Position numbers and translations under genes: made by a program. A DNA stretch of 64,000 nucleotides, from the IMG/VR virus record IMGVR_UViG_3300042482_000679, one strand, 5' to 3'. Origin of the DNA: a virus. Positions within the stretch are counted from its first letter, which is position 1; every line of letters begins with the position of its first letter. Below, in pieces: positions 10,747-53,132 of the stretch. A model generated the notes under the pieces. It saw nothing but the letters and a program-made list of their open reading frames with translations, made no database searches and was not told the DNA's origin.

Positions 10747-10748
10747 TT

Positions 10749-12535: not shown

Positions 12536-12572
12536 TTCTTTTTTTTAAAATAAAACCTTTTATATTTTTAAA

Positions 12573-13828: not shown

Positions 13829-13829
13829 T

Positions 13830-14366: not shown

Positions 14367-14367
14367 T

Positions 14368-16812: not shown

Positions 16813-16813
16813 A

Positions 16814-17404: not shown

Positions 17405-17676
17405 TAGAAGTATTTGGACAAAACTATTATGTGGATTTCGATAAAATCGAATCATACATTGATACTATCGGTGACGAAAGTTTAAATCTTTCAGGTGGGA
17501 CGGAAATGAAAATTAATGTTGTAAAATACGAGCTAATTAAATTAATGTTAGATGTTATTTTTAGTGAAATGGATATGGGAGACAATAAATTAGGACTTAA
17601 AAGTTCAGAAATATCCATACCATTTAGATTAGCATTTAACTCATTATTAAACAAAAATATAATAAATCATTATTAA
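17401..17676 (+). CDS. Hypothetical protein
   Basis: 91 aa, ATGA overlap. Confidence 0.65.
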   Translation: MIEVFGQNYYVDFDKIESYIDTIGDESLNLSGGTEMKINVVKYELIKLMLDVIFSEMDMGDNKLGLKSSEISIPFRLAFNSLLNKNIINHY

Positions 17677-17677
17677 T

Positions 17678-18733
17678 ATGGACCAATTACAAATTGACAA
17701 GGTAAAACAATCTATAGACAAACTTAGAGATAAGTCGTCTAAAATTTATTTCTTTGTGCACGACACAAAAGGAAATGCGAAAGCATCAATAAAATACATT
17801 TATGATATGGCGTTGACTCTTAAAAGAGGGGGTTACAACGCAATCATTCTTCACGAGAAGAAAGATTACACAGGAGTTTCAGGATGGTTGAATGAGGAGT
17901 ATATGAATGAAATCCCTCATAAAGTTATTGAAGGTGAGAATATTGAAATTGCACCTGAAGACTTTTTGGTAATCCCTGAAATCTTTGGGTTTATGATGGA
18001 CCAAGTTAAAAACTTACCTTGTGGTAAAATTGTATTAACTCAGGGTTATTCATATATGTTGGAAACATTACAACCAGGTCAAACTTGGAATCAGTTTGGT
18101 TTCTTAAAATGTATCACCACAAGTGAAGTTCAAAAAGACTACATTCAAAAAGTTATGAGAGGTCAAACTTTTGATGTTATCGAACCATTTATTGAGGATT
18201 ACTTCAAAAAGTCTGAAAGACTTCCGATGCCAATTATCGGTGTTCACTCAAGAGAACAAGAAGATACAATTAACCTAATCAAAACTTTCTATTTGAGATT
18301 CCCTCAGTTTAGATGGTTTACGTTTAGAGATTTACGTGGATTGAGTCAAGAACAATTCGCTAAGGCAATCTCAGAATGTTTCTTAACAGTTTGGATTGAT
18401 AGAAACAGTGCTTACGGTACCTTCCCATTGGAGAGTATGAAATGTGGTGTTCCAACAATTGGTATCCAACCAAACTTGAAACCTGAGTGGATGAATGAAA
18501 CTAATGGTGTGTGGATTAAGGACGAAACTTTACTACCTGAATTAATTGCCGATTGGTCTCAACATTGGTTAGAAGATGACATTTCAGAAGATGTCCTTAA
18601 AAATTTAGATATAACAATCGAACCTTTACCAAATAAAGAGTCGTTTCAAAATAAAGTGATAGAAGTGTTCTCGGGATACCTTAATACCAGAGCAGAATCT
18701 ATGGAAGAACAAATCTCAAAATTCGCAGAATAA
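17678..18733 (+). CDS. Glycosyltransferase, GT-B fold
   Basis: VIPEI and AYGTFPLESMKCGVP (GT4-type E..G.P motif). Confidence 0.75.
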   Translation: MDQLQIDKVKQSIDKLRDKSSKIYFFVHDTKGNAKASIKYIYDMALTLKRGGYNAIILHEKKDYTGVSGWLNEEYMNEIPHKVIEGENIEIAPEDFLVIPEIFGFMMDQVKNLPCGKIVLTQGYSYMLETLQPGQTWNQFGFLKCITTSEVQKDYIQKVMRGQTFDVIEPFIEDYFKKSERLPMPIIGVHSREQEDTINLIKTFYLRFPQFRWFTFRDLRGLSQEQFAKAISECFLTVWIDRNSAYGTFPLESMKCGVPTIGIQPNLKPEWMNETNGVWIKDETLLPELIADWSQHWLEDDISEDVLKNLDITIEPLPNKESFQNKVIEVFSGYLNTRAESMEEQISKFAE

Positions 18734-18734
18734 T

Positions 18735-19541
18735 ATGGAAGAAAAATTAAATTTATCAGTAATCCTACCCATCAAATCATCATTAGCATTAAATTTTGAT
18801 GAGTATTTTAATAAAGCAATTACTTCATTAAAAAACCAAATGGTTGGTTTTGAAGAATTAATCATTGTTAGTTCAAATGAAGAACAACTAAAGTCTTACT
18901 TAGAATCATTTGATTTTGGTGACTTGAATGTTGTAAAATTAAATTACGATGGTGAACCAAATTATTCATCACAAATTAATTATGGTGTATCACAAGCCAA
19001 GGGTGAATGGATTTCATTTTTTGAATTTGATGACGAATACGCATCAATTTGGTTTAAAAATGTTTTAAAGTATTCAAAATCATATCCTGAAGTACAAGCT
19101 TTCTTACCTGTAGTTGTTGATGTTGATGATAAAGAAGTTTTTGCTGGTTTCACAAATGAAGCGGTATTTGCCGCAAACTTCTCACAAGAAATGGGATATT
19201 TGACAAATGATATTCTACAAGATTATCAAAACTTCCAAAGCTCAGGTATGGTAATTAAAAAGAGCGTTGTCGAAGAGTTTGGTGGTTTTAAATCTTCAAT
19301 CAAACTTACATTCGTATACGAATTTTTACTTAGAATGACATACAATTCGGTATCTATTATGACAATCCCAAGATTAGGATACAAACATACAAATATGAGA
19401 ACAGGTTCATTGTTTTGGAACTACAAGTTTAGTGATGAGAAAATGGTTGAGGATGAGGTTAAGTTTTGGGTCCAAACAGCTAAAAAAGAATATTTCTTCT
19501 CAAATGATAGAACCATAAAGTATGAGAGTCAAAATGGATAA
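18735..19541 (+). CDS. Glycosyltransferase family 2
   Basis: LSVILPI...NYGVSQAKGEWISFFEFDD. Confidence 0.8.
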   Translation: MEEKLNLSVILPIKSSLALNFDEYFNKAITSLKNQMVGFEELIIVSSNEEQLKSYLESFDFGDLNVVKLNYDGEPNYSSQINYGVSQAKGEWISFFEFDDEYASIWFKNVLKYSKSYPEVQAFLPVVVDVDDKEVFAGFTNEAVFAANFSQEMGYLTNDILQDYQNFQSSGMVIKKSVVEEFGGFKSSIKLTFVYEFLLRMTYNSVSIMTIPRLGYKHTNMRTGSLFWNYKFSDEKMVEDEVKFWVQTAKKEYFFSNDRTIKYESQNG

Positions 19542-20293
19542 TGCTAGAGGTTCTATCAGCTACAACAGAAGAGTCCACCGCAAAAAAACGCGGTAGGAAA
19601 TCTACAGGTCAAACTACGAATTATTTTGACGTAAGGGAAGAAGAGGCTGTTAAAAGTTTTCTTTTAGCGGAAACGCAAGAAGAAAAAAATAGAATTTATA
19701 ACGAATTTCTACGTATGCCATTGGATAAAATGATATCCTCAATTATACGTAGATACAAACTTTATAGAAAAGATATGGATTTCAGGGAAATCCATAACGA
19801 TACTCATTCATTCTTAATGACAAAAGTTGATAAGTTTAAGCCTTCTAAAAATAAGAAGGCTTATTCATATTTTGGGACTATTTGTAAGAATTATTTGATG
19901 GGTCAAATAATTAAAGACCAAAAAGAAACTAATCGTAAAGTTTCTTATGAAGACATATCAACCTCATTAGAAGAAAGAGCTGATATGATATATCATATTG
20001 ATACCGAAGTCGTTGAAACTGATTTTGTGATAAAAAAATATTTGGACGAACTTAGAGGATTTATTGAAGAAGATTCTTTAAGTCATAGTGAGGTTAAACT
20101 AGGTTACGCCCTTATTGATTTATTTGAAAACTATGAAGAGATATTTTCAGGTACAGACAATAATAAATTCAATAAAAACATTATTTTACTCTCTTTAAGA
20201 GAGATGACAAATCTTTCAACAAAAGAGATTAGAAACTCAATGAAAAAGTTTAAAAAACTTTATGTTGTGGTGCAAGGTAGAATAAAAACTTAA
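19541..20293 (+). CDS. Phage late sigma factor (T4 gp55-like)
   Basis: NYF..., KFKPSKNKKAYSYFGTICKNYL resembles gp55/sigma region 2; lies directly before the structural genes. Confidence 0.7.
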   Translation: MLEVLSATTEESTAKKRGRKSTGQTTNYFDVREEEAVKSFLLAETQEEKNRIYNEFLRMPLDKMISSIIRRYKLYRKDMDFREIHNDTHSFLMTKVDKFKPSKNKKAYSYFGTICKNYLMGQIIKDQKETNRKVSYEDISTSLEERADMIYHIDTEVVETDFVIKKYLDELRGFIEEDSLSHSEVKLGYALIDLFENYEEIFSGTDNNKFNKNIILLSLREMTNLSTKEIRNSMKKFKKLYVVVQGRIKT

Positions 20294-33845: not shown

Positions 33846-35708
33846 TTACGAATTCAGCAACTTATCAAGTTCTTCACCCATTTTTCCTAAACTTTGTTGT
33901 CCAACACCTAAATCTAAAAATTTGTTACCATACATATCACTCTCTAAAAGGATATTCATATCTCTATCCATTTTGGATTCTGGCGCTAACTCTGGCGCGC
34001 CAGCTTCAGGTGCCGGTGGTGGAGGAACCTCTCCACCCGCTTCTGGCGCGGTCTCAAAACCACCGCCTCCACCTGCGAATATATCTTCACCTGGAGGTGG
34101 CGTTGTAGTCTCGCCTGCGGGTTCTTGACCTGTTGCTGGTAGATTACCTTGTTTGTTACCATAAAGTTTATCAATTGTATCAAAGATACCTGTTTTAGAA
34201 ATAACTGTTGGTGTATTTTTAAGCTCTTCACCCACAGCCTTTTCAAGTCTTTGTTGTAGTAGGTCAACTCTAATTTCTTCATCAGACCATTGGAATATAT
34301 GTTTTTTGGCCCAAGTTGATGAGGTTGGTTGAATACCATTTCCTGGGTCAGTAACCATATCTTTATACAATAACATTTTTTCTTTCCAAATGTCAATCTT
34401 AAGAAGGTCTGCTTGTGTTGATGGGTTTGTTAATCCCAATTCAAAATTAGATATCTCTTCTTCAAAACCTAAAAGGAACAAGTGAATAATTGCAATTTTA
34501 TTCATTTCTTGAACCATAGATTTTTGAATTCTATTAATGGTTCTTGCAAATCTGATATCCATCAGTGCCAAGCTTTTACCATCACCTACGGTTTCTTCAA
34601 ATCCTAAAAATGCTTTTGGTATACGAAGTGCTGTAACAAGTTTCTTTTGAATATATTCAATATCTGCAATTTCAGATAAGTTCTGTGCACCAGGTAATGT
34701 GTCAATTGGACTTGGCGCTGCAGGGTCTCTTACAGGAATAAAATAATCTTGGTCAACCGCCATTTGGTTAAATCTCATATCTACGTTACCTGTTTTAGAA
34801 TCAACAATTTGTTCTCTTTTAAACTTGTTGGCAACACGTTGTACGTAAGCCTCAACATCATCGTCGTTCATATTTCCGACATATACTTTGAAGACCCTAC
34901 GTTCAGGGGCTCTTGAAGTACGGTATATCAACATCGCGTCCTCCGATAATAGAAGTTGTTTCCAAATTCTACGGGACTTTTCCAACATAGATGTACCATA
35001 CGGCAATTTACGGTCATCACCCAATAATCTAAAGTGAGCAATTTCCCAAGGTTGGAATTCCATATTCTTTTCTTTCCAATAGAATTTCAATCCTTTATTT
35101 TTAGTGTAATCGTTACCTATGTTTGGAGATACTGAACCATCCATAAGTCCACTTTCAACCCTTTCAACTTCAATGTTTGGTAACTGAACACAACCAACAA
35201 CACCCTTTTCAGGGTCCAATCTTAGATAAACAAAATTGTCACCATACTTACAAGTGTTTCTAGTCCACATAGGTAAGTTAGTGTTAATATCTAAGTTATT
35301 ATTGAATAAATCCGCTAATACAGATTTAATCCTTTTTGATTCTGAATAAATCTGTAATACAAAACCATCTTCATTAGGTGTTGTAGATTCTTCAGCGTAA
35401 ATGTCTAAGGCTGCAGAAATTTCTGGAGTATACTCCATAGACTCATAGTCATAATAAGATGATAATCTATTTGGTTGGTAGTATACTGCTTGAGTGTATA
35501 AATTATTCTCTACCTTAGCAAATTGTCCTGCCAAGTAAGCGGTTTGTCTTGCTTGGAGTTTTTCCTTTTCATATTCGGCTTTATCGGTAGTTCTTAAAAG
35601 TTCTTTTTTATCAAACTTAAATACAGGAAAATCCTGATTCATTAACGCGTCAGGACCTAAGGCTCTACCTAATCTTTGCCAAACTGTAAATTGCTTATTT
35701 TCTGCCAT
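33846..35708 (-). CDS. Portal protein (T4 gp20-like)
   Basis: PEISAALDIYAEE, PYGTSMLE, EDAMLIYRTSRAPERRVF, DYFIPVR, LPGAQNL. Confidence 0.96.
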   Translation of the reverse strand: MAENKQFTVWQRLGRALGPDALMNQDFPVFKFDKKELLRTTDKAEYEKEKLQARQTAYLAGQFAKVENNLYTQAVYYQPNRLSSYYDYESMEYTPEISAALDIYAEESTTPNEDGFVLQIYSESKRIKSVLADLFNNNLDINTNLPMWTRNTCKYGDNFVYLRLDPEKGVVGCVQLPNIEVERVESGLMDGSVSPNIGNDYTKNKGLKFYWKEKNMEFQPWEIAHFRLLGDDRKLPYGTSMLEKSRRIWKQLLLSEDAMLIYRTSRAPERRVFKVYVGNMNDDDVEAYVQRVANKFKREQIVDSKTGNVDMRFNQMAVDQDYFIPVRDPAAPSPIDTLPGAQNLSEIADIEYIQKKLVTALRIPKAFLGFEETVGDGKSLALMDIRFARTINRIQKSMVQEMNKIAIIHLFLLGFEEEISNFELGLTNPSTQADLLKIDIWKEKMLLYKDMVTDPGNGIQPTSSTWAKKHIFQWSDEEIRVDLLQQRLEKAVGEELKNTPTVISKTGIFDTIDKLYGNKQGNLPATGQEPAGETTTPPPGEDIFAGGGGGFETAPEAGGEVPPPPAPEAGAPELAPESKMDRDMNILLESDMYGNKFLDLGVGQQSLGKMGEELDKLLNS

Positions 35709-35746: not shown

Positions 35747-37513
35747 CTATCGAGAACCAAACAGCCATTTATATTTCTCATAATCATTTTTAGAGGGTTC
35801 ATAATTCCTACTATGTTGTTGTTGATTCGGAAATTGTGGTATTGACGGATTAAAATATTGTGAACTATCTTTATGTTCATTTACAGTTGTGGACCAAGAA
35901 TCAATCATTGCTTTAGTGTGATTAACCACCTTAGTCAATGAAGGGAACGCCGCTTCAGCAGCATACAACGCCATTGAAATTGACATAATACAATCATCGT
36001 GATGTCCTCTTTGGTGGTCAGGTCTACCATTTATGTATACAAATGTTCCCATTTCACCTAATAATCTACTTGACCTGACTTTAAAGTCGTGTCTAATTGC
36101 CTCCTCAAATGATGCAATGATTTGAACTCTTTTTGAATTAAAATTAATACCAGGTATTTTTTCATTTTGTTTAGGGTCATATTTCCATTTGTTGGTTAAG
36201 TCAACACCATCATAATAGAAATTTTTATACCCTAATTCTTGTAATCTTCTTGATGTCGCAACACCCATACCCCCCGTTAAGTCAACAATACATAAAGCAT
36301 TATACATTGTTCCCCACTTGTACGCAATCTCTGCTAATACATCGGGTGGTATTTTACCAACAAATTCTAAAACCTGTTCTCTTGAGTCAAAATCAATGAT
36401 TTCAATACACGAGAAGTCTTCTGAATCTCCCCTTGATACATCAACACCCATCACATATTTGTGATTATTTTCAGGTTCTTTCCATATCCAAAGTTGGTTA
36501 CCCATTAATTTGGCTGTTGGTTCTTTTACATCATTCTCAGAAATTTTTTGGGTTAATAAAGAATCAAATACGTTATCACCTGAACCCAAGAAATTACATT
36601 CCAATTCCTGAGCAACTTTTCGTTTGTCGTACTTGAGTTTTTTAACCATACTCTCAAACCAACTTGAACAAGGTTTATATCCTTGTTCCATATATGTTTG
36701 AATTAGTTCAATATCTCTGTCGTATGGATTTTCATCGGGTAATTGTCTTACAACGTCTTTGGGGTATTCTTCCTTATTTAACAAATAATGAACAATATCC
36801 TCACATTTAACCATATACAAATCTTTGGTATAACGAGGGTCACGGAACCAATACATTGGCGTGATTTTGAAGTCGTTCATACCTCTTTGTGCTTGGTCGT
36901 AAATTTCGTAGTAAATCGGGTCGTATCCGTTAGGTGTTGATATTACAACAACTTTACCACCCGTAGATAGTGAGGCCATACAAGCCGCCCAGAAATCACT
37001 GTCAGCTTCAATAAACGCCGCCTCGTCAAATATTAATATCGTGGGGGTATAACCACGTAAGGCATCTTTAGATGTGGCAACCGCCTTAACTTCACATCCA
37101 TTAGTTAATTTAAAGTGTCTGGCAGAGTTTTTTTCACCTGAGAACCCAATACCAACCCAGTTCGGCCATTGTTCCGTAAAAGCTCTAATTTTATTAGCAA
37201 ATTCTACAGATGTTTCTAATTTATTGGCAATAATAAGAATCTTTTCAGGTTTTTCTTTTCGAGCAAACGCTAATCGTTTACTTGCCCAACCTGCAGTAAC
37301 CGTAGATACACCCGCCTGACGATACTTCAATGCAATGTTTTCATTATACATTTCGTAATCGTTAACAAGTGTTACTTGGTCTTTAAATAATTCTAAGGGA
37401 ACATACTTTGATACTGTGTTATCGTATGTTTGTAGATATGTTTTAAGAGCATAAGGAGTGCTTTTCATACACTTCTTATACTCTATTAAAACTTGTTCTT
37501 TTGTTAAACTCAT
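35747..37513 (-). CDS. Terminase large subunit (T4 gp17-like)
   Basis: KYRQAGVST Walker A, IFDEAAF Walker B, ISTPNG, nuclease GVDVSRG and HDDCIM. Confidence 0.96.
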   Translation of the reverse strand: MSLTKEQVLIEYKKCMKSTPYALKTYLQTYDNTVSKYVPLELFKDQVTLVNDYEMYNENIALKYRQAGVSTVTAGWASKRLAFARKEKPEKILIIANKLETSVEFANKIRAFTEQWPNWVGIGFSGEKNSARHFKLTNGCEVKAVATSKDALRGYTPTILIFDEAAFIEADSDFWAACMASLSTGGKVVVISTPNGYDPIYYEIYDQAQRGMNDFKITPMYWFRDPRYTKDLYMVKCEDIVHYLLNKEEYPKDVVRQLPDENPYDRDIELIQTYMEQGYKPCSSWFESMVKKLKYDKRKVAQELECNFLGSGDNVFDSLLTQKISENDVKEPTAKLMGNQLWIWKEPENNHKYVMGVDVSRGDSEDFSCIEIIDFDSREQVLEFVGKIPPDVLAEIAYKWGTMYNALCIVDLTGGMGVATSRRLQELGYKNFYYDGVDLTNKWKYDPKQNEKIPGINFNSKRVQIIASFEEAIRHDFKVRSSRLLGEMGTFVYINGRPDHQRGHHDDCIMSISMALYAAEAAFPSLTKVVNHTKAMIDSWSTTVNEHKDSSQYFNPSIPQFPNQQQHSRNYEPSKNDYEKYKWLFGSR

Positions 37514-42937: not shown

Positions 42938-43690
42938 TTAGTCGATATTTTTTACTTCAACGGAAAGTTCTTTATCCATTTGATTGTTGATAGTATCATA
43001 CAATTTTTCAATAAGACCTGACCTTCTTAGATATTTGAAAACCAAATTCTCATACGAGTATTCACCTTCTTTCTCCAAACCTGAAGTTCTATATTCTTTC
43101 AATTTATCCTTAAGAGCCAAAATTTTAGATTCAGTTTTTTCAACACCATCCTTTTTAATTTGGAGAATCAAATTTTGAAGTTTCTGTTTCCAAGAAAGAA
43201 TTTTTGTTTCCAATAAATCTCTATCTATTTTTGAATTTTCTCTTTCGGGAACATTTAACCATTTATCATCTGAAATTGAATAAACACCTGAAGAATAATG
43301 AGCTTCTTTGGCATCTTGGGCGTACAACTCAACCTCGTAACCAAAAATTACGATGTCGTGTTTTTCATTAAAAAGTTGTTTTTTAAGGTTAAACAATTCT
43401 TTGTGTAAATCTTCTTGTTTTTTGAATTGTGAGAAATCAATTACAACGTGTAAATCAAAGTCTGAAAATTTTGACCAGTTATAATTTGCCAACGAACCTG
43501 TTAATATAATATCTTCAACTTTAATATCATCACCAAGACTATCGATAAAAGCATCCGCAATTTTTAATAAAGCCCTTTTTACTTTTGACTTCATTTTTGC
43601 ATCTTTAGCTTCCTCAGGATTTTCCCAAACTTTAGGGTTTAAGGTTTCTCTAAGTGAAAAACTATCAATAATGTCGTTAACTTTCTCCAT
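42938..43690 (-). CDS. Pol-beta-superfamily nucleotidyltransferase
   Basis: LTGSLANYNWSKFSDFDLHVV (GS...DxD) plus third acidic residue in VELY. Confidence 0.8.
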   Translation of the reverse strand: MEKVNDIIDSFSLRETLNPKVWENPEEAKDAKMKSKVKRALLKIADAFIDSLGDDIKVEDIILTGSLANYNWSKFSDFDLHVVIDFSQFKKQEDLHKELFNLKKQLFNEKHDIVIFGYEVELYAQDAKEAHYSSGVYSISDDKWLNVPERENSKIDRDLLETKILSWKQKLQNLILQIKKDGVEKTESKILALKDKLKEYRTSGLEKEGEYSYENLVFKYLRRSGLIEKLYDTINNQMDKELSVEVKNID

Positions 43691-43707
43691 TATTAATAAA
43701 TAGATAG

Positions 43708-43953
43708 TTATTCTACTTTCTTATACTTGAATTTTTTTGATATCTCAGAATTGAAGAATTTACCCTGTGATTCGGACATTCTGAATTTTGTGTATGTTGC
43801 GTGTGGTACATCTTCATATTCGTATCTCACGCCATTTTTGAACTCTGCAATCATTTTTTTGGTTGCAGTATCATATTCTGTTCTTGTAATATTACTTGAC
43901 TCAATCTCGTTGAGTATTTTTGTTCCGTCTATAATTTCTCTTTTAATTGCCAT
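43708..43953 (-). CDS. KTSC-domain protein
   Basis: ESSNI....YD......EFKNG..YEY.DVP...Y..F..SESQGKFFN. Confidence 0.9.
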   Translation of the reverse strand: MAIKREIIDGTKILNEIESSNITRTEYDTATKKMIAEFKNGVRYEYEDVPHATYTKFRMSESQGKFFNSEISKKFKYKKVE

Positions 43954-44242
43954 CGTTTAAAGGGAATAACTCATTTATCTTCTCCAATCTTTTGTGGATA
44001 ATTAAATTTAAATCATTTTCTTCCAAATTAAACATATCAGACAATTCCTTCTTTAACATATGTAAATAATAATTAAACTCATCGTGAGCTTTAAATAATT
44101 CTACGGTCATATTCGAAACCTTAGCCGCGGTTTCCTCTGTATAACCAAGTCTTTTTAATTCTTTTCTAATTCTAATATAGGCATCAAAAAGTGATGAATA
44201 GTTAAAAGAACCATCAAGATATTTGTTCACTATCTTTTCCAT
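43943..44242 (-). CDS. Hypothetical protein
   Basis: 99 aa, late-like motif 4 nt upstream. Confidence 0.6.
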   Translation of the reverse strand: MEKIVNKYLDGSFNYSSLFDAYIRIRKELKRLGYTEETAAKVSNMTVELFKAHDEFNYYLHMLKKELSDMFNLEENDLNLIIHKRLEKINELFPLNDGN

Positions 44243-44288: not shown

Positions 44289-44735
44289 TTATTCATATTT
44301 TCTCAACTCGTTTCGTATCTCAATCGCTGATTCAAAATCTTGTGTTTCGATTGCCGATTTCAATTTAGACTGTAGTTCTTCTACCTTGTCTTTATTCTCT
44401 TCAATTGATTTAATCATATCACGAAGTTTAATTGCCAATAAGAAATCTTCAGTCTCAACCGCTCTTTCGAGTTCTGCTTTTAGTCTTTCAACTTTATTCT
44501 CAGATTGTTTTGGTTTTCTCAATTTAGATTTAAGACCATCTTTGTCACTTCCAAAGTAGGACTTATAAATTACGGTTGATTTCCAAGTACCATCTGGTGA
44601 TGTGTAACTTTCACTGGTCCATTCACCTTCTTCATCTTTACCCGTTTTAAAATCTTTTTTAAAGTCTTTAAAAGGGTCTCCACCGAACATTGATTCAAAC
44701 ATTTCGTTTAGGTCGTCAAAATTAAATCTTCTCAT
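44289..44735 (-). CDS. Tandem UVR (UvrB/UvrC coiled-coil) domain protein
   Basis: LKAELERAVETEDFLLAIKLRDMI and LQSKLKSAIETQDFESAIEIRNEL. Confidence 0.85.
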   Translation of the reverse strand: MRRFNFDDLNEMFESMFGGDPFKDFKKDFKTGKDEEGEWTSESYTSPDGTWKSTVIYKSYFGSDKDGLKSKLRKPKQSENKVERLKAELERAVETEDFLLAIKLRDMIKSIEENKDKVEELQSKLKSAIETQDFESAIEIRNELRKYE

Positions 44736-44783
44736 AGTATTTTTTTTATTAAATATAAATGTTTATTTTTGTAGAGACAATAG

Positions 44784-44855
44784 TCAATTTGAATGCCAAA
44801 TGGAAATATATGACATTTTGTCAGTATCACAAAAAACTTAACTGACAATTTTTCA
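44784..44855 (-). promoter_or_regulatory. Sigma54-like promoter plus two TGACA-N3-TGTCA-type palindromes
   Basis: Minus-strand TGGCA-N6-TTGA at 44784-44798; TGACATTTTGTCA at 44811-44823; TGACAATTTTTCA at 44843-44855. Confidence 0.55.
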
Positions 44856-44859
44856 GTTG

Positions 44860-44891
44860 TTTGGATTTGTATGAAAATTGTTATACCTTTG
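44860..44891 (+). promoter_or_regulatory. Bacteroidota-type primary sigma promoter for clpC
   Basis: TTTG (44860) - 20 nt - TACCTTTG (44884). Confidence 0.7.
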
Positions 44892-44908
44892 TAAAAAAAT
44901 AGAAAACT

Positions 44909-46909
44909 ATGAATGGATTAATGGATGATGACGAAAAACCTCTAAGCCAACGTAAATCTTCTGATTCTTCAACACCTGTGTTGGACAATTTCAGTAGAGA
45001 CCTTATTAAGTTAGCTGAAGATGGTAAACTTGACCCTGTTGTTGGTCGTGAACAAGAGATTCTACGAATTGCACAAGTTTTATCACGTAGGAAGAAAAAC
45101 AACCCAATTATCTTGGGGGAACCTGGTTGTGGTAAAACCGCGATTGTCGAAGGATTGGCAATGTTGATTCACAAAGGTGAGTGTCCAAAGAATTTGTTGG
45201 ATAAACGAATTGTTACTTTGGATTTGACATCTGTGGTTGCAGGAACCAAGTATCGTGGTCAGTTTGAAGAACGACTAAAGGTTATCTTGGAAGAACTTCA
45301 AAACAACCCGAATATCATCGTGTTCATTGATGAGATTCATACGTTGATTGGTTCAGGTAACTCATCAGGTTCTCTTGATGGTTCCAACATCTTTAAACCA
45401 GCTCTTGCTCGTGGAGAACTCCAATGTATCGGAGCGACTACTTTGGATGAGTATCGTAAGTCGTTTGAGAAAGATGGGGCGTTGGAACGTCGTTTTCAAA
45501 AAATTATGGTTGACGCATCAACACCTGCAGAAACTGTAATTATCCTTAACAATGTCAAGGATAAGTATGAGTCTTACCATAAGGTAACCTATTCAGATGA
45601 GGTAATTGAATTGTGTGTAAAGTTGGCTGACCGTTACATCACAGACCGTCAATTCCCTGACAAAGCCTTTGATATTCTGGATGAGGTTGGGGCTCGTGCT
45701 CAAACTGAGGTTAAAATACCTGAAGCAATTGAGGACCTGAAACGTAAAGCGGCTGAAATCAAACAACAAAAACTTGATGTTGTAAAACGTCAAAACTTTG
45801 AACAAGCAGCCGAATTACGTGACAAGGAACGTAAAATCTTGGCAAAACTTGAATCTGAAAAGAAAAAGTTTGAAGAGGAGTCATCAACCAATCGTACCTC
45901 GATTACTGTTGATAATGTTTATGATGTGGTTTCGTCTATGACAAAAATTCCTGTAAACAAAATGACAATCGATGACACTAACGCACTTATCAATATGGAT
46001 AGTGTTATTAAGTCTAAGGTAATCGGTCAGGATGAGGCGGTAGAAAAGATTGTTAAATCAATCCGTAGAAACCGAATTGGTATCAAAGACCCTAATCGTC
46101 CAATTGGTTCATTTATTTTCTTGGGTTCTACTGGTGTTGGTAAAACTCACTTGGCTAAACAAATCGCCAAAGAAATGTTTGGTTCAGAAGATTCGATGAT
46201 TCGTGTGGATATGTCCGAGTATCAAGAAAAACACACGGTATCTCGATTGGTCGGAGCACCTCCAGGATACGTTGGTTATGATGAAGGTGGTATGTTGACA
46301 GAACAAGTCAAAAACAAACCATACTCAGTAATCCTATTTGATGAGGTTGAAAAGGCTCACCGAGACATCTTCTCAATCCTACTTCAAATCCTTGATGATG
46401 GTCACGTTACTGATTCATTGGGTCGTAAGATTAACTTCAAGAATACCTTGATTATTATGACCACAAACTTGGGTGTTAAAAAATTGTCTGATTTTGGTTC
46501 AGGTATTGGTTTCTCATCAAACAAATACTCAAACGAAGAAGCCAAAAAACAGATGTTGATGAAAGAACTCAAAACTTTCTTCTCACCTGAGTTTTTGAAC
46601 CGTGTAGATGACACCATCGTGTTCCAAACTTTATCGAAAGAAAATATCGATAAAATCACCAAACTTGAATTGGATAAATTGGTGACTCGTTTGACTGATA
46701 TGAATTATCAAATTACATATAGTCCTTCGTTGATTGAATTTATCTCAAAAGTTGGGTTTGATGAAATATATGGAGCACGTCCTATCAAAAGGGCTATTCA
46801 AGATAAGGTCGAAGATTTTATCTCTGAGATGGTCCTGACAGGTAAAATCAAGGAAGGTAAAAAAATCAATCTTACCGTCCAAGATGAGACAGTAAAAATT
46901 GGTAAGTAA
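44909..46909 (+). CDS. clpC: ClpC-like AAA+ unfoldase lacking the N-terminal domain
   Basis: Two AAA modules ([14 protein letters not shown]; [17 protein letters not shown]), UVR-type middle domain ([11 protein letters not shown]), GIGF ClpP-docking loop. Confidence 0.9.
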
Positions 46910-46910
46910 C

Positions 46911-46940
46911 AAAAGGGGGGATGAAAGTCCTCCCTTTTAT
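46911..46940 (+). terminator. Intrinsic terminator
   Basis: AAAAGGGGGGAT-GAAA-GTCCTCCCTTTT. Confidence 0.75.
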
Positions 46941-46951
46941 ATTTATATTAT

Positions 46952-47578
46952 ATGCGTGATAGAATTAAACAAATTTTACAAGAACAAATCGACCTTAAAA
47001 AAATAGGTATTGAAGTTGAACCTTCAGATAGAGTTGTACGTAGTATTTGTGATGCTAAGAAATTTTGTGATGCTCAAGGACCTATAACATTTGGTCAATT
47101 AAGAACTATTATCGAATCGGCAATAAAGGAACGATTGGGTAAACATATTGGCGAGGGTGGGTTTAAAGCAACATTAAGATTATTACCTTGGTTTTTACCA
47201 CAATTAGCGGTTGCGGGATTTGGTGCTGCAATTATGAGAGCTGCAAATAAAATTATTAAACCTTCATTAACTGAAACCCAAAATTACAAGACTTGGTGGG
47301 GTAAAACAATTTTAAGACTTATGGATGCAGTTGAGGGTGACCTTCCTCTTTCAGACCCATTTAGTAAAATATTTTTTATATCAGATGGTTTAATGAGCTT
47401 AATGGACGATGAGAGTAAAGTTAAATTTGCTCGTCATATTGCAGAAATTGCTAACAGAATGCCAGACGATGAACCAGTGCCAGAGTTTTTTGTAGAAAAC
47501 GAATTAAGAAATTGGGTTAATAAAAGATTTTTATTAGACCCACCACTTGAACCAAAGGGAATAAAAAAAGAGGACTAA
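46952..47578 (+). CDS. Hypothetical late protein
   Basis: TATTTATA 4 nt upstream; leader MRDRIKQILQE. Confidence 0.65.
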   Translation: MRDRIKQILQEQIDLKKIGIEVEPSDRVVRSICDAKKFCDAQGPITFGQLRTIIESAIKERLGKHIGEGGFKATLRLLPWFLPQLAVAGFGAAIMRAANKIIKPSLTETQNYKTWWGKTILRLMDAVEGDLPLSDPFSKIFFISDGLMSLMDDESKVKFARHIAEIANRMPDDEPVPEFFVENELRNWVNKRFLLDPPLEPKGIKKED

Positions 47579-47591
47579 TGTCCTCTTTTTT
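47563..47591. terminator. Bidirectional terminator between convergent genes
   Basis: AAAAAGAGGAC-TAAT-GTCCTCTTTTT. Confidence 0.85.
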
Positions 47592-47594
47592 GTT

Positions 47595-48425
47595 TTAGAA
47601 AAGTAAAAACTGATGTGAGTTTTTATCTACTCTGTTAGTGTGGTGATAATTGTTACCAATTGATTCGATAATTTTTTTACCAATGTTAATACCGTTCTCG
47701 ACATCTTCAATTACAACATATTCATATTTTGAGTGGTAGTCATAATAACCAATTGATAGGTTAATACAAGAGAAATCAAATTTCTTTCTCAAAGCGTATA
47801 CATCAGTAAATGGGTGTCGTTGGTACTTCATATCGTCTGTCATAGACTCTTTCAATACAACATCACAAGACTTGAAGAAATCAGAGTTTCGGTCAAACAA
47901 TCTTTCACCAAAACAATATTCTGTAACCATCCAGTTCTCAGGTGCATCAAACTGAATCGCATATCCGACATTTTTGAAGAACTCAGGGTCAGCGTGAGAT
48001 GAACCAATACAACCAATTTCCTCACTAACAAAAAACGCAACTTTCAAGTCAGGTAGTTCTTCCAATAAAGTCAAACAGGCAAAAACACCCGCCTTGTCAT
48101 CACCACCAATACCTGTTGGATTTCCGTGGTCGTCATAAGCTTTCAAGGAAAGTTTCATTTCACCTTGAGCATTTTCTTTCATTTCTTCACGAACATTAAT
48201 ATTTGTCAATGAGTGGACCGTGTCCGTATGAGCAACAACACAAGGAAAATATTCAACAACTTCAGAAGTCTGTTTTGTAACATAAACGTTCATATGTTCA
48301 TCAACCTGAAAGTTGTAACCTTTGTTGGTTAGGTAGTTTGTGAGGTATTCTACCATAATACCTTCGTGTCTTGATACTGTGGGAACTGATAGAACTTCCT
48401 TAAGTAGGTTTGTGTTGATTGTCAT
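47595..48425 (-). CDS. M28/M42-like (clan MH) metallopeptidase
   Basis: AHTDTV, GGDDKAG, SEEIGCIGS, QFD, YHSKYE. Confidence 0.88.
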   Translation of the reverse strand: MTINTNLLKEVLSVPTVSRHEGIMVEYLTNYLTNKGYNFQVDEHMNVYVTKQTSEVVEYFPCVVAHTDTVHSLTNINVREEMKENAQGEMKLSLKAYDDHGNPTGIGGDDKAGVFACLTLLEELPDLKVAFFVSEEIGCIGSSHADPEFFKNVGYAIQFDAPENWMVTEYCFGERLFDRNSDFFKSCDVVLKESMTDDMKYQRHPFTDVYALRKKFDFSCINLSIGYYDYHSKYEYVVIEDVENGINIGKKIIESIGNNYHHTNRVDKNSHQFLLF

Positions 48426-48450
48426 TGTATATTATTTGTATACAAATATA

Positions 48451-49818
48451 CTAAAAACCTAACAGATTTTCAAAGTTAAATAACTTTTTATTGTAAATAA
48501 AATCATTAAATTTTTCATAGTCCATTGAAAAATTTCTCTGTTGTAATCCTTTTTGGACTTTAAACTCAACTTTTAAAGTTTCAGGGTTGACACTATCAAC
48601 AACCAATCTTAAATCAGGGTAATTTGGGAACGGAAGACTATACCCCTGTTTAAACTTACTAAAAATTTCTTTGGATATTCTGGACCATTCTTCAATTTGA
48701 TAATCTTCCTCAAACTTCTCAAGTATCTTATCAAGGTTTCGTCCCAAATCAACATTAAAACCGTGACTATCAAAATCTCCTTGGTAGTTCCAATACTCTT
48801 CGTACCAACCTCCATTTATACCACCAACTTCATTAAAAATCCCTTCCAATAATTGTTTTGGTGTTGCAGATTCCATATTAAGTTGGACTGCCCAAGTATA
48901 AAGAACGGCAACTGTTGCGGTTAATTCGTTATCTCTCGAGTCCCAACTAAAACCATTTTTTGAGAAAACATTGTTTAACTCTTTATAAACACTTTCTCTA
49001 ACACCATCTCTTACTTCCTCATTGGCATAATAATTGGCACTATCCATCATATCACCCAAAATACCCGGAACAAGTTTATTGAAGTCTCTATACAGTTTTG
49101 CCAAAACTTCTTCGTTACTAGAGTTATCAATACTGATATCTTCCTCATTCCAATCAGGATGCAACAAAGAAAATATTTTCTTCATTTTTTCTTTGTTTTC
49201 ATCATTATATTGACTTTGATACCAATATCCCTCTGAAAAATTTTCTCGTGTACTCCATTCATCAACAAACTGAAAACCATCATAACCACCATAACTTGAT
49301 GTAACAGCATTAATAATATAAATGTCATCCTCAACCAAGTTAAACATATTTTCATAATCATTCTCGCTTAATTTGAAGACAATTTTTGTTTCACCCTTTC
49401 TACTACCTCTTTCTATTACTTCAGAAACTTTTGGAAATCTATCTAAATAATCAGCATCGACTCTACCATAGATGTATTTTCTTAACGCAATTGGGAAGAA
49501 TGGACCTGGTTTTGTAAGAGTCTCAATAAAGTCTTCCAATGTACCATTTGTTGTGAAATTTTTCAAATTAACCTCTGAAGATTTAGAATCAACAATTTTG
49601 TAGTCACTCTCAGTACGAGTTAATAAATAATACTTCCCACTTTCATTGATAACATAAGCACCTCCAAGGGAAAAAGATTTTTCCAAATCTTCTACAGTTT
49701 CATCGTTCTGACACCAATTTGTGTTATCTTGGAAGTTATTACATAGTGCTTCCATATTGTAATATAGAACGATTGTATCGTTAAAAGATTCAAATATTTT
49801 CTTGTCAAACTTTGGCAT
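48451..49818 (-). CDS. Hypothetical acidic protein
   Basis: 455 aa; late motif 5 nt upstream; N-terminal C..TNWC motif. Confidence 0.7.
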   Translation of the reverse strand: MPKFDKKIFESFNDTIVLYYNMEALCNNFQDNTNWCQNDETVEDLEKSFSLGGAYVINESGKYYLLTRTESDYKIVDSKSSEVNLKNFTTNGTLEDFIETLTKPGPFFPIALRKYIYGRVDADYLDRFPKVSEVIERGSRKGETKIVFKLSENDYENMFNLVEDDIYIINAVTSSYGGYDGFQFVDEWSTRENFSEGYWYQSQYNDENKEKMKKIFSLLHPDWNEEDISIDNSSNEEVLAKLYRDFNKLVPGILGDMMDSANYYANEEVRDGVRESVYKELNNVFSKNGFSWDSRDNELTATVAVLYTWAVQLNMESATPKQLLEGIFNEVGGINGGWYEEYWNYQGDFDSHGFNVDLGRNLDKILEKFEEDYQIEEWSRISKEIFSKFKQGYSLPFPNYPDLRLVVDSVNPETLKVEFKVQKGLQQRNFSMDYEKFNDFIYNKKLFNFENLLGF

Positions 49819-49841
49819 ATACTAATAAATACTTATATTTG
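49811..49841 (+). promoter_or_regulatory. Bacteroidota-type promoter for tmRNA
   Basis: TTTG (49811) - 19 nt - TATATTTG (49834). Confidence 0.75.
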
Positions 49842-49859
49842 TATTGTTCTTTGAAATAT

Positions 49860-50255
49860 GGGGGTGCCTTGGTATTGATTGGCGTTGCTGGGCATCGGGG
49901 GCACGTAGTGAGAAGTTTCCTATCACTATAATCTACGGAGGCGATTTTTAACTGGCAATACTTTTGCTAAACTTTCTGCTCTCGGTCTTATGAGAGAAGA
50001 AAAAGTTGCTGTAGCCTAAGAGGTATACACAACACGGGGTCGATGGACATTAACCTAGCAACAGAAGTCCTTTAAGGTGTGGTTTCTATCCAAAAAGGAA
50101 CAAAACGGGTATGGTTCCCCGTAAGAACTGTCACCGTCGCTGAGCGGTGTGAGAACTCAGATATTTCGGAAGGTATGAAAAACCTTGACCTAAACGTGTA
50201 GTCCCTAATGGTTAGGGCGAGCAAGACGGGGGTTCGACTCCCCCCACCTCCACCA
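49860..50255 (+). ncRNA. ssrA: tmRNA
   Basis: Acceptor GGGGGTG/CACCTCC-A-CCA with G3:U wobble; T-arm GGGGG-TTCGACT-CCCCC; tag ORF 49954-50019 after TAACT. Confidence 0.93.
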
Positions 50256-50260
50256 AGTTA

Positions 50261-50300
50261 GATGTGGGAGTTTTAGTTGACTCCCATATCTCTTTTTTTT
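50261..50300 (+). terminator. Intrinsic terminator after tmRNA
   Basis: GATGTGGGAGT...ACTCCCATATC followed by a T-tract. Confidence 0.8.
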
Positions 50301-50733: not shown

Positions 50734-50820
50734 GGAGGTTTGGCAGAGCGGTCGAATGCGGCAGTCTTGAAAACTGCTTTACGGGAAACTGTAACCGGGG
50801 TTCGAATCCCTGAGCCTCCG
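50734..50820 (+). tRNA. tRNA-Ser(TGA)
   Basis: GGAGGTT/AGCCTCC acceptor, GCAGT-CTTGAAA-ACTGC, long variable arm; no encoded CCA. Confidence 0.95.
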
Positions 50821-50826
50821 CTAAGA

Positions 50827-50858
50827 AATCTTGGGACATCATCCCAAGATTTTTTTTT
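50827..50858 (+). terminator. Intrinsic terminator
   Basis: AAATCTTGGGA-CATCA-TCCCAAGATTT followed by a T-tract. Confidence 0.8.
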
Positions 50859-50895
50859 GTTTGACAAATCCATTTTAAATCTTTAACTTTGAACT

Positions 50896-51225
50896 ATGGA
50901 ACTATTAAAAGAATTTTGGACAAAAGTGAAAAGTGGTCTTAGAATCGTTGTTAACTACTTTTTCATTATCCTGGGTATGGTGGGATGCTTTACCATTGGA
51001 TACTATTACAACGCATTACGTGATTTCAACAAGATTGGTAAACCTAAAATTTATAAGGCAATTGACCACACGTTGGCAATCGACGAAAACAATAATGGCA
51101 TCATTATTGAAAATCGTAGAGGTACCTACATTGTATTGGACGCTGAATTGGTGACCAAGTTCTTTGATATCAAAGCACGAAATATGTGGGGACAACACCA
51201 AACACCAAAACCTGTAGAGAAATGA
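50896..51225 (+). CDS. Single-pass membrane protein
   Basis: Hydrophobic segment IVVNYFFIILGMVGCFTIGYYY; promoter TTTG-N20-TAACTTTG at 50860-50891. Confidence 0.7.
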   Translation: MELLKEFWTKVKSGLRIVVNYFFIILGMVGCFTIGYYYNALRDFNKIGKPKIYKAIDHTLAIDENNNGIIIENRRGTYIVLDAELVTKFFDIKARNMWGQHQTPKPVEK

Positions 51226-51296
51226 TGAGTGTTTGGTATAACCGAATTCTCCACCTGTTAGCAGGTATTGCGGTGGGGTATTTAATCTTTGTTTAA
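51222..51296 (+). CDS. 24-aa hydrophobic peptide (not in the ORF track)
   Basis: MMSVWYNRILHLLAGIAVGYLIFV; ATGA overlap, fills the intergenic gap. Confidence 0.45.
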   Translation: MMSVWYNRILHLLAGIAVGYLIFV

Positions 51297-51306
51297 AAAA
51301 AATGTT

Positions 51307-51870
51307 ATGACAGTAAAAAGGACCATTACAACAGTTTATCTCCTAATCACCATTATGGTGTTAACAGTAGGATACCAATTAGCCAAGAATAAATTCGTTT
51401 ATCAACCTAATGGTATTGAAGAAATGGGGTATGAGTCCACTTTGCCAACGTCATTGTATATGTATAATCTACTTGAGGACAAGTCCGAAGAATACGGTAT
51501 CCCCAAACATATCTTATACAATGTCGCTTATTTGGAGACACGTTATTGTGGTCCTTTTCACGTCAACTACAACCCACATCAAAGGTCTTATGCCGGAGCA
51601 GTGGGACCGATGCAAATCATTACAAGATACTCGCATTCATATGCGGGTAGACGAGTTAAAGAGACCGAATTAAAAAATAATCTGAAACTTAATATCGACA
51701 TTTCTTGTAAGATGCTCAAAAAATTACACGGTATGTATGGGCGATGGGATTTGGCTCTTGGATATTACAATACAGGTTATCCACAAGTTAATGGTTACGC
51801 ACGATACGCATCATCCACAATTGATTACAAACAAAAATGGGTGAAACCAAAAACTCAAACAACTCTATGA
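51307..51870 (+). CDS. Lytic transglycosylase (SLT domain) with N-terminal membrane anchor
   Basis: VAYLET catalytic Glu, GAVGPMQI, ALGYYNTG. Confidence 0.88.
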   Translation: MTVKRTITTVYLLITIMVLTVGYQLAKNKFVYQPNGIEEMGYESTLPTSLYMYNLLEDKSEEYGIPKHILYNVAYLETRYCGPFHVNYNPHQRSYAGAVGPMQIITRYSHSYAGRRVKETELKNNLKLNIDISCKMLKKLHGMYGRWDLALGYYNTGYPQVNGYARYASSTIDYKQKWVKPKTQTTL

Positions 51871-52217
51871 CGAAACTACAAGACGCTATCTTTATATTCT
51901 TTGTTTATTTAATTTCTCAAATATTCGTATTCTACCAACTCCAAGGTCATCTTTGGAACAAATGGATTAAAGACCACCCATTTCTTATGGCACTCTTTGG
52001 ACTACCACTTGGATATTTGGTTATATTAGGGTCTCGTAAGATGGTTGCACTGTGTGACGGTCAAACTTGGCCAAATCGAATTTTAGGTTTTACTCTTGGA
52101 GTAATAGTATTTACTATTATGGCTTGGGTTTACCTTAAAGAACCCTTATCATTAAAAACAGGTGTATTACTTTTTTTATGTTTCTTAATAATTTGCATTC
52201 AATTGTTTTGGAAATAA
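51867..52217 (+). CDS. Four-TM small membrane protein (DMT/SMR-like)
   Basis: Four hydrophobic helices, LKEPLS motif; ATGA overlap at 51867. Confidence 0.7.
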   Translation: MTKLQDAIFIFFVYLISQIFVFYQLQGHLWNKWIKDHPFLMALFGLPLGYLVILGSRKMVALCDGQTWPNRILGFTLGVIVFTIMAWVYLKEPLSLKTGVLLFLCFLIICIQLFWK

Positions 52218-52255
52218 GAAAATCAGTCGTATATTTGTAGAGTTAAAAACAATAT

Positions 52256-52329
<74 letters not shown>

Positions 52330-52333
52330 CAAA

Positions 52334-52525
52334 ATGACAGACTTGTATTTAGATTCAAAAGAAATCCGAAAGAAACGATACCAAGGGGTAAATCCCGAAG
52401 GTTTTGTTCTTGTATCAGAAGAAGCTTTGGATAAGCTACGTGACTTTGAAATATGGAAAAAATGGAAGAATAATGAAATCGATTTAATTGATTTGGAATT
52501 CGAAGAAAATCATTTGACAGAATAA
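52334..52525 (+). CDS. Hypothetical protein
   Basis: 63 aa from ATG at 52334; the upstream start in the track lies inside the tRNA. Confidence 0.55.
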   Translation: MTDLYLDSKEIRKKRYQGVNPEGFVLVSEEALDKLRDFEIWKKWKNNEIDLIDLEFEENHLTE

Positions 52526-52553
52526 TTATCTTTGTTATATTTCTGTAACACAA

Positions 52554-52627
52554 GCCTCTATAGCTTTAATCGGTAGAGCACCTGACTTGTAATCAGGGGG
52601 TTGGCGGTTCGAGTCCGTCTGGAGGCT
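52554..52627 (+). tRNA. tRNA-Thr(TGT)
   Basis: GCCTCTA/TGGAGGC, CCTGA-CTTGTAA-TCAGG. Confidence 0.95.
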
Positions 52628-52643
52628 CAAAAAAAAAATCATT

Positions 52644-52823
52644 ATGACAAACAAGAATCCAAAAACAACTGATAAAAAGGTGAAAACCACTGAAAACGAT
52701 TTTCGTATTGTTGCTGAGGGTAAACTAAAAGGTCGTAAAGATATATCTAAAGATGAAAATAAAGATAATCCGTGGAAATGTGAATGGGATAATGTCCACG
52801 GTGATGTAATTCACTTTAGATAA
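52644..52823 (+). CDS. Hypothetical protein (59 aa; not in the ORF track)
   Basis: MTNKNPKTTDKK...GDVIHFR, fills the gap between two tRNAs. Confidence 0.5.
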   Translation: MTNKNPKTTDKKVKTTENDFRIVAEGKLKGRKDISKDENKDNPWKCEWDNVHGDVIHFR

Positions 52824-52827
52824 AAAA

Positions 52828-52903
52828 GCGGGAGTAGCTCAGTTGGTAGAGCTTCAGCCTTCCAAGCTGAAAGTCGCGAGTTCGAGTCTCGTCTCCCGCT
52901 CCA
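52828..52903 (+). tRNA. tRNA-Gly(TCC)
   Basis: GCGGGAG/CTCCCGC-T-CCA, TCAGC-CTTCCAA-GCTGA. Confidence 0.96.
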
Positions 52904-52904
52904 T

Positions 52905-53010
52905 AAGGGAATCCGGCTTTATGGTGAAGGACACGCTGGCGGATGACATTCAGAGATTGTCTTTAAAGAACTCGAAACCATAAGTCTTGTGATGGAGGTC
53001 CCTTCCACCA
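52905..53010 (+). ncRNA. Candidate structured ncRNA (unclassified)
   Basis: Nested helices AAGGGA/TCCCTT, GGCTTTATGGT/ACCATAAGTC, AAGGACA/TGTCTTT; ends CCACCA. Confidence 0.45.
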
Positions 53011-53015
53011 CACAA

Positions 53016-53088
53016 GCGAGAGTAGCTCAGTTGGTAGAGCACAACCTTGCCAAGGTTGGGGTCGCGAGTTCGAATCTCGTCTCTCGCT
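53016..53088 (+). tRNA. tRNA-Gly(GCC)
   Basis: GCGAGAG/CTCTCGC, CAACC-TTGCCAA-GGTTG. Confidence 0.96.
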
Positions 53089-53132
53089 CAATCTGAATTA
53101 AAACACAGAGTAAACCAAATTTAAAAACCAAA

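Follow-up and report, generated by a model that had tools for sequence, protein, structure and literature searches.

Within a 64,000-nucleotide stretch of viral DNA (IMG/VR record IMGVR_UViG_3300042482_000679), referred to as a whole as the window, we analyzed a cluster of genes between positions 44289 and 50255 that is related to protein degradation and ribosome rescue. It holds the genes for a 148-residue protein with tandem UVR motifs (44289..44735, minus strand; two Pfam UVR motifs, E 6e-15), a 666-residue ClpC ATPase without the N-domain (44909..46909, plus strand; recognized by its Pfam domains and by alignment with Staphylococcus aureus ClpC), a 276-residue PepT-like metallopeptidase of the MH clan (M20/M42) without a lid domain (47595..48425, minus strand; phrog_4191, E 1.5e-37), the product of a conserved open reading frame (ORF) of 455 residues (48451..49818, minus strand), and a one-piece transfer-messenger RNA (tmRNA) with an encoded CCA (49860..50255, plus strand; Rfam RF00023 and ARAGORN). 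An earlier note on this DNA had described the UVR, clpC, peptidase and tmRNA genes as clustered, and had proposed that they form a private tag-and-degrade circuit, in which a non-host tag is read by the phage ClpC with the UVR protein as its adaptor. All four genes are indeed present and intact, and the components of the proposed circuit are real and functional-looking, whereas the adaptor role of the UVR protein is contradicted by the comparisons below.

The window is phage DNA, with genes for the large terminase (35747-37513, minus strand) and the portal protein (33846-35708, minus strand) lying 7-10 kb upstream of the cluster. Its G+C content is 31-36%, and its RNA genes, as called by ARAGORN, are ten transfer RNAs (tRNAs) and one tmRNA. 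The nearest record (G001) is 97% identical across positions 1-20000 of the window and stops short of the cluster, and megablast of the locus against GenBank phages gave no match. A protein search with ClpC led to 185 related viral contigs, the best 80 of which, with ClpC 70-87% identical, were used for the family comparisons; one of the related contigs is a complete genome, 321 kb long and carrying terminal repeats. The cluster belongs to a large family of uncultured jumbo phages with genomes of about 320 kb. In bacterial genomes, the nearest 80 ClpC homologues (54-59% identity) are nearly all from Bacteroidota, and because of this affinity and the low G+C content, the phage host is likely to be a member of the Bacteroidota.

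The phage ClpC aligns with residues 153-794 of S. aureus ClpC as a single stretch, with the N-domain missing. Its reading frame begins 14 residues ahead of the position matching residue 153, and the 173 bp upstream of clpC form a divergent promoter region. The remaining domains are a first AAA+ module (D1), a short M-domain with a UVR motif, a second AAA+ module (D2) and the D2-small domain (Pfam AAA, AAA_lid_9, AAA_2 and ClpB_D2-small). The family keeps its Walker motifs, pore loops, M-domain and G-x-G-F loop invariant (for 18 members, this was seen for GxxGxGKT, DE, and the KYR and GYVG pore loops). The UVR motif of the M-domain (residues 279-310) can be aligned without gaps through S. aureus ClpC 411-460, which places F297 at the position of F436; this tip residue is Tyr in most relatives, so an aromatic side chain is kept. 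The ClpP-docking loop G532-I-G534-F535 (IGF, 533-535) aligns with AGF of S. aureus ClpC and with DFGxG[VI]GF of Bacteroidota ClpC. The Bacteroidota homologues, most of which carry the latter motif, are nearly all 820-910 residues long and have 147-196 extra N-terminal residues. By these alignments, the phage protein is a Bacteroidota-type ClpC that lost its N-domain, and the domain was also not found as a separate protein, as a search for Clp_N (PF02861) came back empty for the complete 321-kb relative and for three long ones. In its two AAA+ modules, its UVR-motif M-domain with an aromatic tip, and its xGF loop, the phage ClpC is like the S. aureus and Bacillus subtilis proteins (PDB 6em8 and 3j3s), whereas ClpC of Firmicutes, Actinobacteria and Bacteroidota carries an N-domain of ~150 residues, which binds MecA, McsB and phospho-arginine and stabilizes the resting state. 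The phage clpC also has its own promoter, unlike clpC in the ctsR-mcsA-mcsB-clpC operon. As a side observation, the 696-residue chain PDB 8xon_S / 8xoo, whose deposited name is 'NDP-hexose 4-ketoreductase', aligns with the phage ClpC along its own residues 40-679 (E 5.6e-206); the name is misleading for what seems to be a ClpC-like ATPase with no standard N-domain.

ClpP had been expected, in the earlier note, to come from the host or from elsewhere in the phage genome. A clpP gene lies 13-28 kb downstream of clpC in the complete relative of 321 kb and in four out of five long ones, and this holds for genomes with a UVR gene as well as for those with an Hsp20 gene beside clpC. The encoded protein matches CLP_protease with 196 bits over positions 5-181 of 182, the GxASMG serine, the HQ histidine and a downstream aspartate are legible in the ORF, and ClpP models score 235 bits vs 67 bits for a head-maturation protease model. 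The ClpP of the window phage is probably encoded elsewhere in its own genome, and with relatives encoding their own ClpP, the protease looks more 'private' than had been assumed.

How a ClpC of this kind could be controlled is suggested by work on S. aureus ClpC, in which the N-domain represses the ATPase, the M-domain tip F436 (the Phe of the UVR motif) holds the resting state, and the SsrA degron is recognized by the pore, not by the N-domain (PMC12583610). An engineered variant, ΔN-ClpC-F436A, degrades GFP-SsrA on par with MecA-activated wild type and does so independently of an adaptor (PMC12583610, Jenne et al. 2025). The phage ClpC is like this variant in being without the N-domain and unlike it in retaining the aromatic tip (F297, mostly Tyr in relatives), so that release from a resting state would need a partner, e.g. 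the tandem-UVR protein.

The gene divergent from clpC was found to vary among relatives: it encodes a tandem-UVR protein at 44 of 78 loci and an Hsp20 protein at 23, and no gene is present at the other 11. The Hsp20 proteins carry the alpha-crystallin domain (PF00011, E 6.7e-13 and 2.3e-12), and no tandem-UVR protein was found elsewhere in the Hsp20-bearing genomes. On a ClpC tree rooted with Bacteroidota sequences (from a quick search only), the slot changes at least three times, with three changes for the UVR state and at least two for the Hsp20 state; by this tree, the occupant of the slot has been swapped repeatedly. These data contradict the UVR protein as the adaptor of a fixed circuit, since clpC, peptidase and tmRNA are kept at 34 of the 78 loci where the slot holds Hsp20 or nothing, tag types are not sorted by UVR protein, Hsp20 or empty slot, and the UVR gene has a different promoter class from the rest of the cluster.

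In the UVR protein itself, an F-rich helix at the N-terminus is followed by a beta unit of three strands, in which W39 and D48-G49 are invariant, and by two helical UVR hairpins (residues 79-148), as seen in the family alignment and in the secondary structure of an AlphaFold2 (AF2) model, and the protein has zero Cys. The M-domain tip motif of ClpC and both motifs of the UVR protein are the same motif. The family has 750 metagenomic relatives, automatically named UvrB or McsA by the Joint Genome Institute (JGI). We considered and rejected an identity as McsA, which is the best NCBIfam match, but at 32.4 bits vs a cut-off of 210, over the UVR part only and with no Cys. Like the phage protein, McsA of Firmicutes is a small UVR-motif protein encoded next to clpC; it differs in having zinc-finger Cys motifs, one UVR motif instead of two, and an N-terminal region other than the phage beta unit, and it works via McsB and the ClpC N-domain, which the phage ClpC is without. 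The AF2 model (predicted local distance difference test, pLDDT, 69) had no PDB match at E <= 0.001, the rows for DnaK substrate-binding domains being weak and non-significant. A complex prediction of the UVR protein with ClpC residues 25-350, using alignments for both, scored 0.05, a value that counts neither for nor against binding. The UVR and Hsp20 proteins appear to share an N-terminal F-x-D-[LIM]-x-x-x-F pattern, but a profile-profile comparison aligned 13 columns with a probability of 4%, and a common origin is unsupported.

The tmRNA matches Rfam RF00023 over its full length (model 1-374) with 89 bits vs a cut-off of 47, and ARAGORN concurs. In the acceptor stem, 5' GGGGGUG is paired with CACCUCC, followed by ACCA, and G3:U70, the pair that marks an alanine tRNA-like acceptor, is present. 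The tag ORF (49954-50019, plus strand; 21 codons and a stop) encodes the tag GNTFAKLSALGLMREEKVAVA, as called by ARAGORN. A hidden Markov model of the family tmRNA matched at 63 of 80 loci; the remaining loci appear to end before the tmRNA position. Among 48 distinct family tmRNAs, the tag frame is 21 or 22 codons in every case, with all length changes in-frame, and K6, G11 and L12 are invariant, each encoded by two to three different codons, within a conserved core K-[LM]-x-x-[LIV]-G-L that is hydrophobic and amphipathic. Judged by this codon usage, the tag is selected at the peptide level. The tags of Bacteroidota are 9 codons long in the four tmRNAs that ARAGORN called in five genomes searched (two GENNYALAA, one GENNYAMAA and one DNTSYRLAA); the resume codon has the same position there as in the phage tmRNA, which is ~40% identical to the Bacteroidota tmRNAs. 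In such comparisons, the phage tag is unlike the tag of the likely host, in line with the earlier description of it as non-host. Compared with bacterial tmRNA-SmpB systems, the phage tmRNA is alike in being one-piece, in its full Rfam match, G3:U70 pair and resume position, and in a tag that ends in a hydrophobic stretch and Ala, while it is unlike Bacteroidota tmRNA in having 21-22 codons instead of 9 and V-x-V-A instead of Y-A-L-A-A at the end. SmpB (PF01668) was not found in the complete 321-kb relative, nor in five long ones, in agreement with the earlier note, by which SmpB would come from the host or from elsewhere in the genome, and host SmpB presumably serves the phage tmRNA. The proposed reader of the tag would also differ, being ClpC in the phage vs ClpX (ClpXP/SspB) in the bacterial system.

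It is conceivable that the tag is no degron, and that the tmRNA only recycles ribosomes, with the long amphipathic tag sparing host ClpXP from saturation or sending chains to the membrane or to Hsp20 aggregation. The hydrophobic, amphipathic core would suit such a function, as would a C-terminus of V-x-V-A (with I or S as the last residue in some relatives) in place of the L-A-A of the sampled Bacteroidota tags. However, 42 of the 48 tags end in Ala after V-x-V or a similar hydrophobic stretch, as known degrons do, and the same genomes also code for a Clp ATPase, ClpP and a peptidase; we regard this explanation as very improbable.

The peptidase, 57-69% identical among relatives, conserves H66, D109, E134/E135 and H231, which align with H78, D140, E173/E174 and H379 of PepT. 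These putative ligands are assigned by the metal and catalytic roles of the PepT residues in 1fno. Its Pfam scores are 25.3 for M42 (cut-off 23.2) and 21.2 for M20 (cut-off 24.6), the NCBIfam PepT models score far below cut-off, and ~110 residues equivalent to the PepT lid (dimerization) domain are missing. Always found between peptidase and tmRNA, the 455-residue ORF belongs to a fast-evolving family of 301-615 residues with a shared core of ~300 residues (DDDxWF, GGWxExxYE, LLYQPELF), a variable N-terminal part and 21-32% identity. For its AF2 model (pLDDT 83), Foldseek against the PDB returned nothing at E <= 0.001, VIA-align wide gave a best Z of 5.1, and language-model atlas scores were at most 0.77.

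The earlier note had also claimed host-type promoters at clpC, peptidase and tmRNA, and this claim is borne out. In the window we counted 11 sites with the Bacteroidota consensus TTTG-N18-21-TAnnTTTG vs 3.4 +/- 1.8 expected, a number reached in 0 of 100 shuffles, and such sites lie directly upstream of clpC, the peptidase gene, the tmRNA, another ORF and tRNA genes. Consensus matches of this sigma-A type are found for clpC at 44860..44891 (plus strand; TTTG-N20-TAnnTTTG), for the peptidase at 48443..48474 (minus strand) and for the tmRNA at 49811..49841 (plus strand), 20 nt upstream of the gene. They recur in relatives: of the distinct upstream regions, 30 of 51 for the peptidase, 25 of 48 for the tmRNA and 13 of 58 for clpC carry the full motif, vs 1.3% of random windows, and the -7 element upstream of the peptidase is present in 49 of 51. 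Terminator-like hairpins follow clpC (46911..46938, plus strand) and, directly 3', the tmRNA (50260..50291, plus strand). With a promoter each and separate terminators for clpC and tmRNA, the three genes read as separate transcription units.

The slot gene differs in that no full sigma-A-type motif is present upstream of it, whether it encodes UVR or Hsp20. Instead, an element GG[ACT]A[CT]-N5-TTG[ACT] lies 48-62 nt before the ATG in 46 of 49 distinct regions, vs 0.7% of random windows; in the window, it is GGCAT-N5-TTGAC (44783..44797, minus strand). The element is common to UVR and Hsp20 genes, and its position is fixed across the window and L001-L067 (TGGYAY-N5-TTGAY). Its spacing and GG element fit the sigma-54 consensus TGGCAY-N5-TTG, whereas the -12 dinucleotide is GA or GT instead of GC, and because of this departure we call it only '-24/-12-like'. 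It may be a stress-type or phage-specific promoter. A shared host regulon, suggested by -24/-12-like motifs upstream of bacterial clpC, was rejected, as most of the matches fall within the coding region of gyrA or of some divergent gene.

One explanation of this transcriptional layout is that the genes are unlinked early genes, transcribed as a block by host RNA polymerase, with ΔN-ClpC serving deregulated destruction of host proteins, for takeover and amino-acid supply, or unfolding and disaggregation in virion assembly, and with the tmRNA belonging to the tRNA array. Each gene having its own promoter, and clpC and tmRNA their own terminators, is consistent with this, and in the clade of the window the tmRNA stands at the head of tRNA genes that run in its direction (in the window Ser, Arg, Thr, Gly, Gly; 50734..53089, plus strand) and share its promoter type, seen there at tRNA-Arg. 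Hsp20 as the alternative neighbor of clpC hints at aggregate handling, and Iyer et al. (PMC7824862) suggest that phage Clp parts act on host targets or in assembly. On the other hand, tRNA genes are found within 6 kb after the tmRNA in only 24 of 47 relatives, leaving about half without them, while the order clpC, peptidase, 455-residue ORF, tmRNA is kept in all 63 of the 63 relatives that extend far enough, and has withstood insertions of variable length between clpC and peptidase, swaps of the slot gene and 30% divergence of ClpC. We consider a lack of any functional link unlikely. That the conserved order reflects function is a suggestion of these data, and plain inheritance among fairly close relatives could also account for it.

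Beyond the family, 40 of 80 viral contigs with ClpC 51-59% identical to that of the window encode N-less forms of 644-732 residues, and near these 40 clpC genes no UVR or Hsp20 homologue was found. Whole-record searches of 39 with N-less ClpC found a tmRNA that passes the Rfam cut-off in two, in both cases more than 150 kb from clpC, and one further record has a near-cut-off match 21 kb from it. Among seven near-complete genomes, tmRNA was not found in five, and ClpP is present in four. The 642-kb huge phage LR756502.1 has an N-less ClpC and no tmRNA above cut-off, and in LR756508.1 both are present, 360 kb apart. As a further observation, LR756502.1 (W01) has CLP_protease-domain genes at 58622, 112104 and 364599, two of them full length (234-260 bits) and one partial. 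By this distribution, N-less ClpC is a recurrent jumbo-phage form that can do without a UVR protein or tmRNA of the phage. Independent distribution of the genes, which the earlier note had named as a refutation of its circuit, is seen at this wider scale (2 of 39 with tmRNA); inside the family, the order from clpC to the tmRNA is kept.

A different cluster was found on the unrelated IMG/VR contig L267 (79.6 kb, about 32% complete). Within 7 kb (positions 5379-12091), it carries an M28 peptidase gene, an unknown ORF, a tmRNA whose tag has 25 codons (GNNSTHIFNQYPLVGNTQTQYAVAA), and genes for an ankyrin-repeat protein, ClpP and a full-length ClpC. The M28 peptidase and the adjacent ORF have no detectable homology to the peptidase and 455-residue ORF of the window, and a search with the window terminase found nothing in L267. 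As judged from these comparisons, L267 carries an analogous cluster built from non-homologous parts, and its repeated association of peptidase, tmRNA, ClpP and ClpC argues further against unlinked genes, whereas the many jumbo phages with N-less ClpC and no nearby tmRNA, UVR or peptidase homologue argue for them.

In the private circuit first proposed, the tag would be a dedicated degron, poorly handled by host proteases and read specifically by the phage ΔN-ClpC, with or without the UVR protein or the 455-residue ORF as adaptor, and ClpC would pass the chains on to ClpP. The tag is long, non-Bacteroidota and peptide-selected, its invariant K..GL core is as expected for a specific reader, the tmRNA is never parted from the clpC-peptidase block in the family (tRNAs, by comparison, stay nearby in about half of the relatives), and the L267 cluster is analogous. 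It is plausible that the phage ClpC alone reads the tag, given that a ΔN-ClpC whose M-domain contacts are disrupted degrades SsrA substrates very efficiently (PMC12583610). However, the UVR gene is absent or replaced at 34 of 78 loci without a matching change in tag type, 37 of the 39 N-less-ClpC records elsewhere have no tmRNA over the Rfam cut-off, LR756502.1 combines N-less ClpC and ClpP with no tmRNA found, and synteny among relatives with 70-87% identical ClpC is perhaps simply inherited; such a private circuit seems rather improbable to us. A more elaborate version would be an autonomous degradation route with a degron code of its own, in which the tag, with its K..GL core and V-x-V-A end, is poor for host ClpXP and is read by the pore of the N-less ClpC, unlocked by the UVR protein as an M-domain mimic, with the 455-residue ORF as a possible tag adaptor. 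We consider this a little more doubtful still. If true, the UVR protein would represent a new kind of ClpC regulator, a mimic of the M-domain found in nature. Clp ATPases are restrained largely via their N-domains, and these domains are also what anti-tubercular cyclic peptides target.

The reading we prefer, to which we would give an even chance of being correct, is that the locus is a phage-run island for proteostasis and ribosome rescue, with parts that act in one pathway and do not form an exclusive lock-and-key circuit. ΔN-ClpC would dock on phage or host ClpP and take in substrates via its pore, and the complex would escape host adaptors directed at the N-domain, phospho-arginine marks and N-domain-mediated repression. 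The slot beside clpC would supply an exchangeable co-factor, an Hsp20 holdase or the tandem-UVR protein, from the -24/-12-like promoter. The UVR motifs, as copies of the aromatic M-domain tip, would most likely act by binding M-domains, moving ClpC from its repressed head-to-head resting state to the active hexamer or back, and a ClpC activated in this way would be well suited to C-terminal tags recognized by the pore. The phage tmRNA, charged by host alanyl-tRNA synthetase and delivered by host SmpB and EF-Tu, would free ribosomes that stall in infection and add the phage-specific tag of 21-22 residues to the stalled chains. Tagged chains would probably be among the ClpC-ClpP substrates, with the lid-less PepT-like peptidase trimming the released peptides, and ClpC function would require neither the UVR protein nor the tmRNA.

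Several findings weigh against this preferred reading. Strict co-inheritance of clpC, peptidase, 455-residue ORF and tmRNA fits a tighter coupling, as does the clustering in L267. In S. aureus, ΔN-ClpC alone is proteolytically inactive (PMC12583610), so loci without a UVR protein need other means to break the M-domain contacts. Lastly, there is no ClpP in the window, which ends 19 kb after clpC, and the nearest record (G001) stops before the locus.

In the literature, surveys report phage ClpP, ClpA/ClpX-type ATPases, ClpS, tmRNA and SmpB in jumbo and huge phages, each separately (PMC7824862; PMC7162821). Term searches of Iyer et al. 2021 (PMC7824862) and Al-Shayeb et al. 2020 (PMC7162821) gave no mention of ClpC, and the passages concerned do not describe N-less ClpC, the UVR/Hsp20 slot, the long tag or the clustering with a peptidase. 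New in the present analysis are the recurrent phage N-less ClpC, the conserved long tag, and the slot in which UVR and Hsp20 genes are swapped behind a promoter type of its own. This locus, together with about 40 other viral contigs, indicates that jumbo phages repeatedly adopted ClpC minus its control domain, often with their own ClpP. The alternation of Hsp20 and tandem-UVR proteins points to a natural regulator of the second control element of ClpC, which would help in understanding, and perhaps in manipulating, how ClpC is activated, and the conserved tag of 21-22 residues bears on whether host ribosomes can be made to use a degron code that a virus brings along. Even if the parts act independently, the locus documents the extent of phage-borne protein quality control.

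Additional features of the locus lie outside the conserved gene set or beside it. An accessory ORF of 208 residues without family assignment (46952..47578, plus strand), between clpC and the peptidase gene, occurs only in the window and in one relative (L002). Upstream of the UVR/Hsp20 slot, a block at 42938-44242 (minus strand) encodes a nucleotidyltransferase (NTP_transf_2), a KTSC-domain protein and a protein of ~100 residues with a conserved PL.[ND]G motif, and this block was seen in the relatives examined. Downstream of the tmRNA, ARAGORN places a 'tRNA-Stop', possibly a suppressor tRNA, and tRNAs of undetermined anticodon among the array genes of some relatives (L015 and L013/L061).

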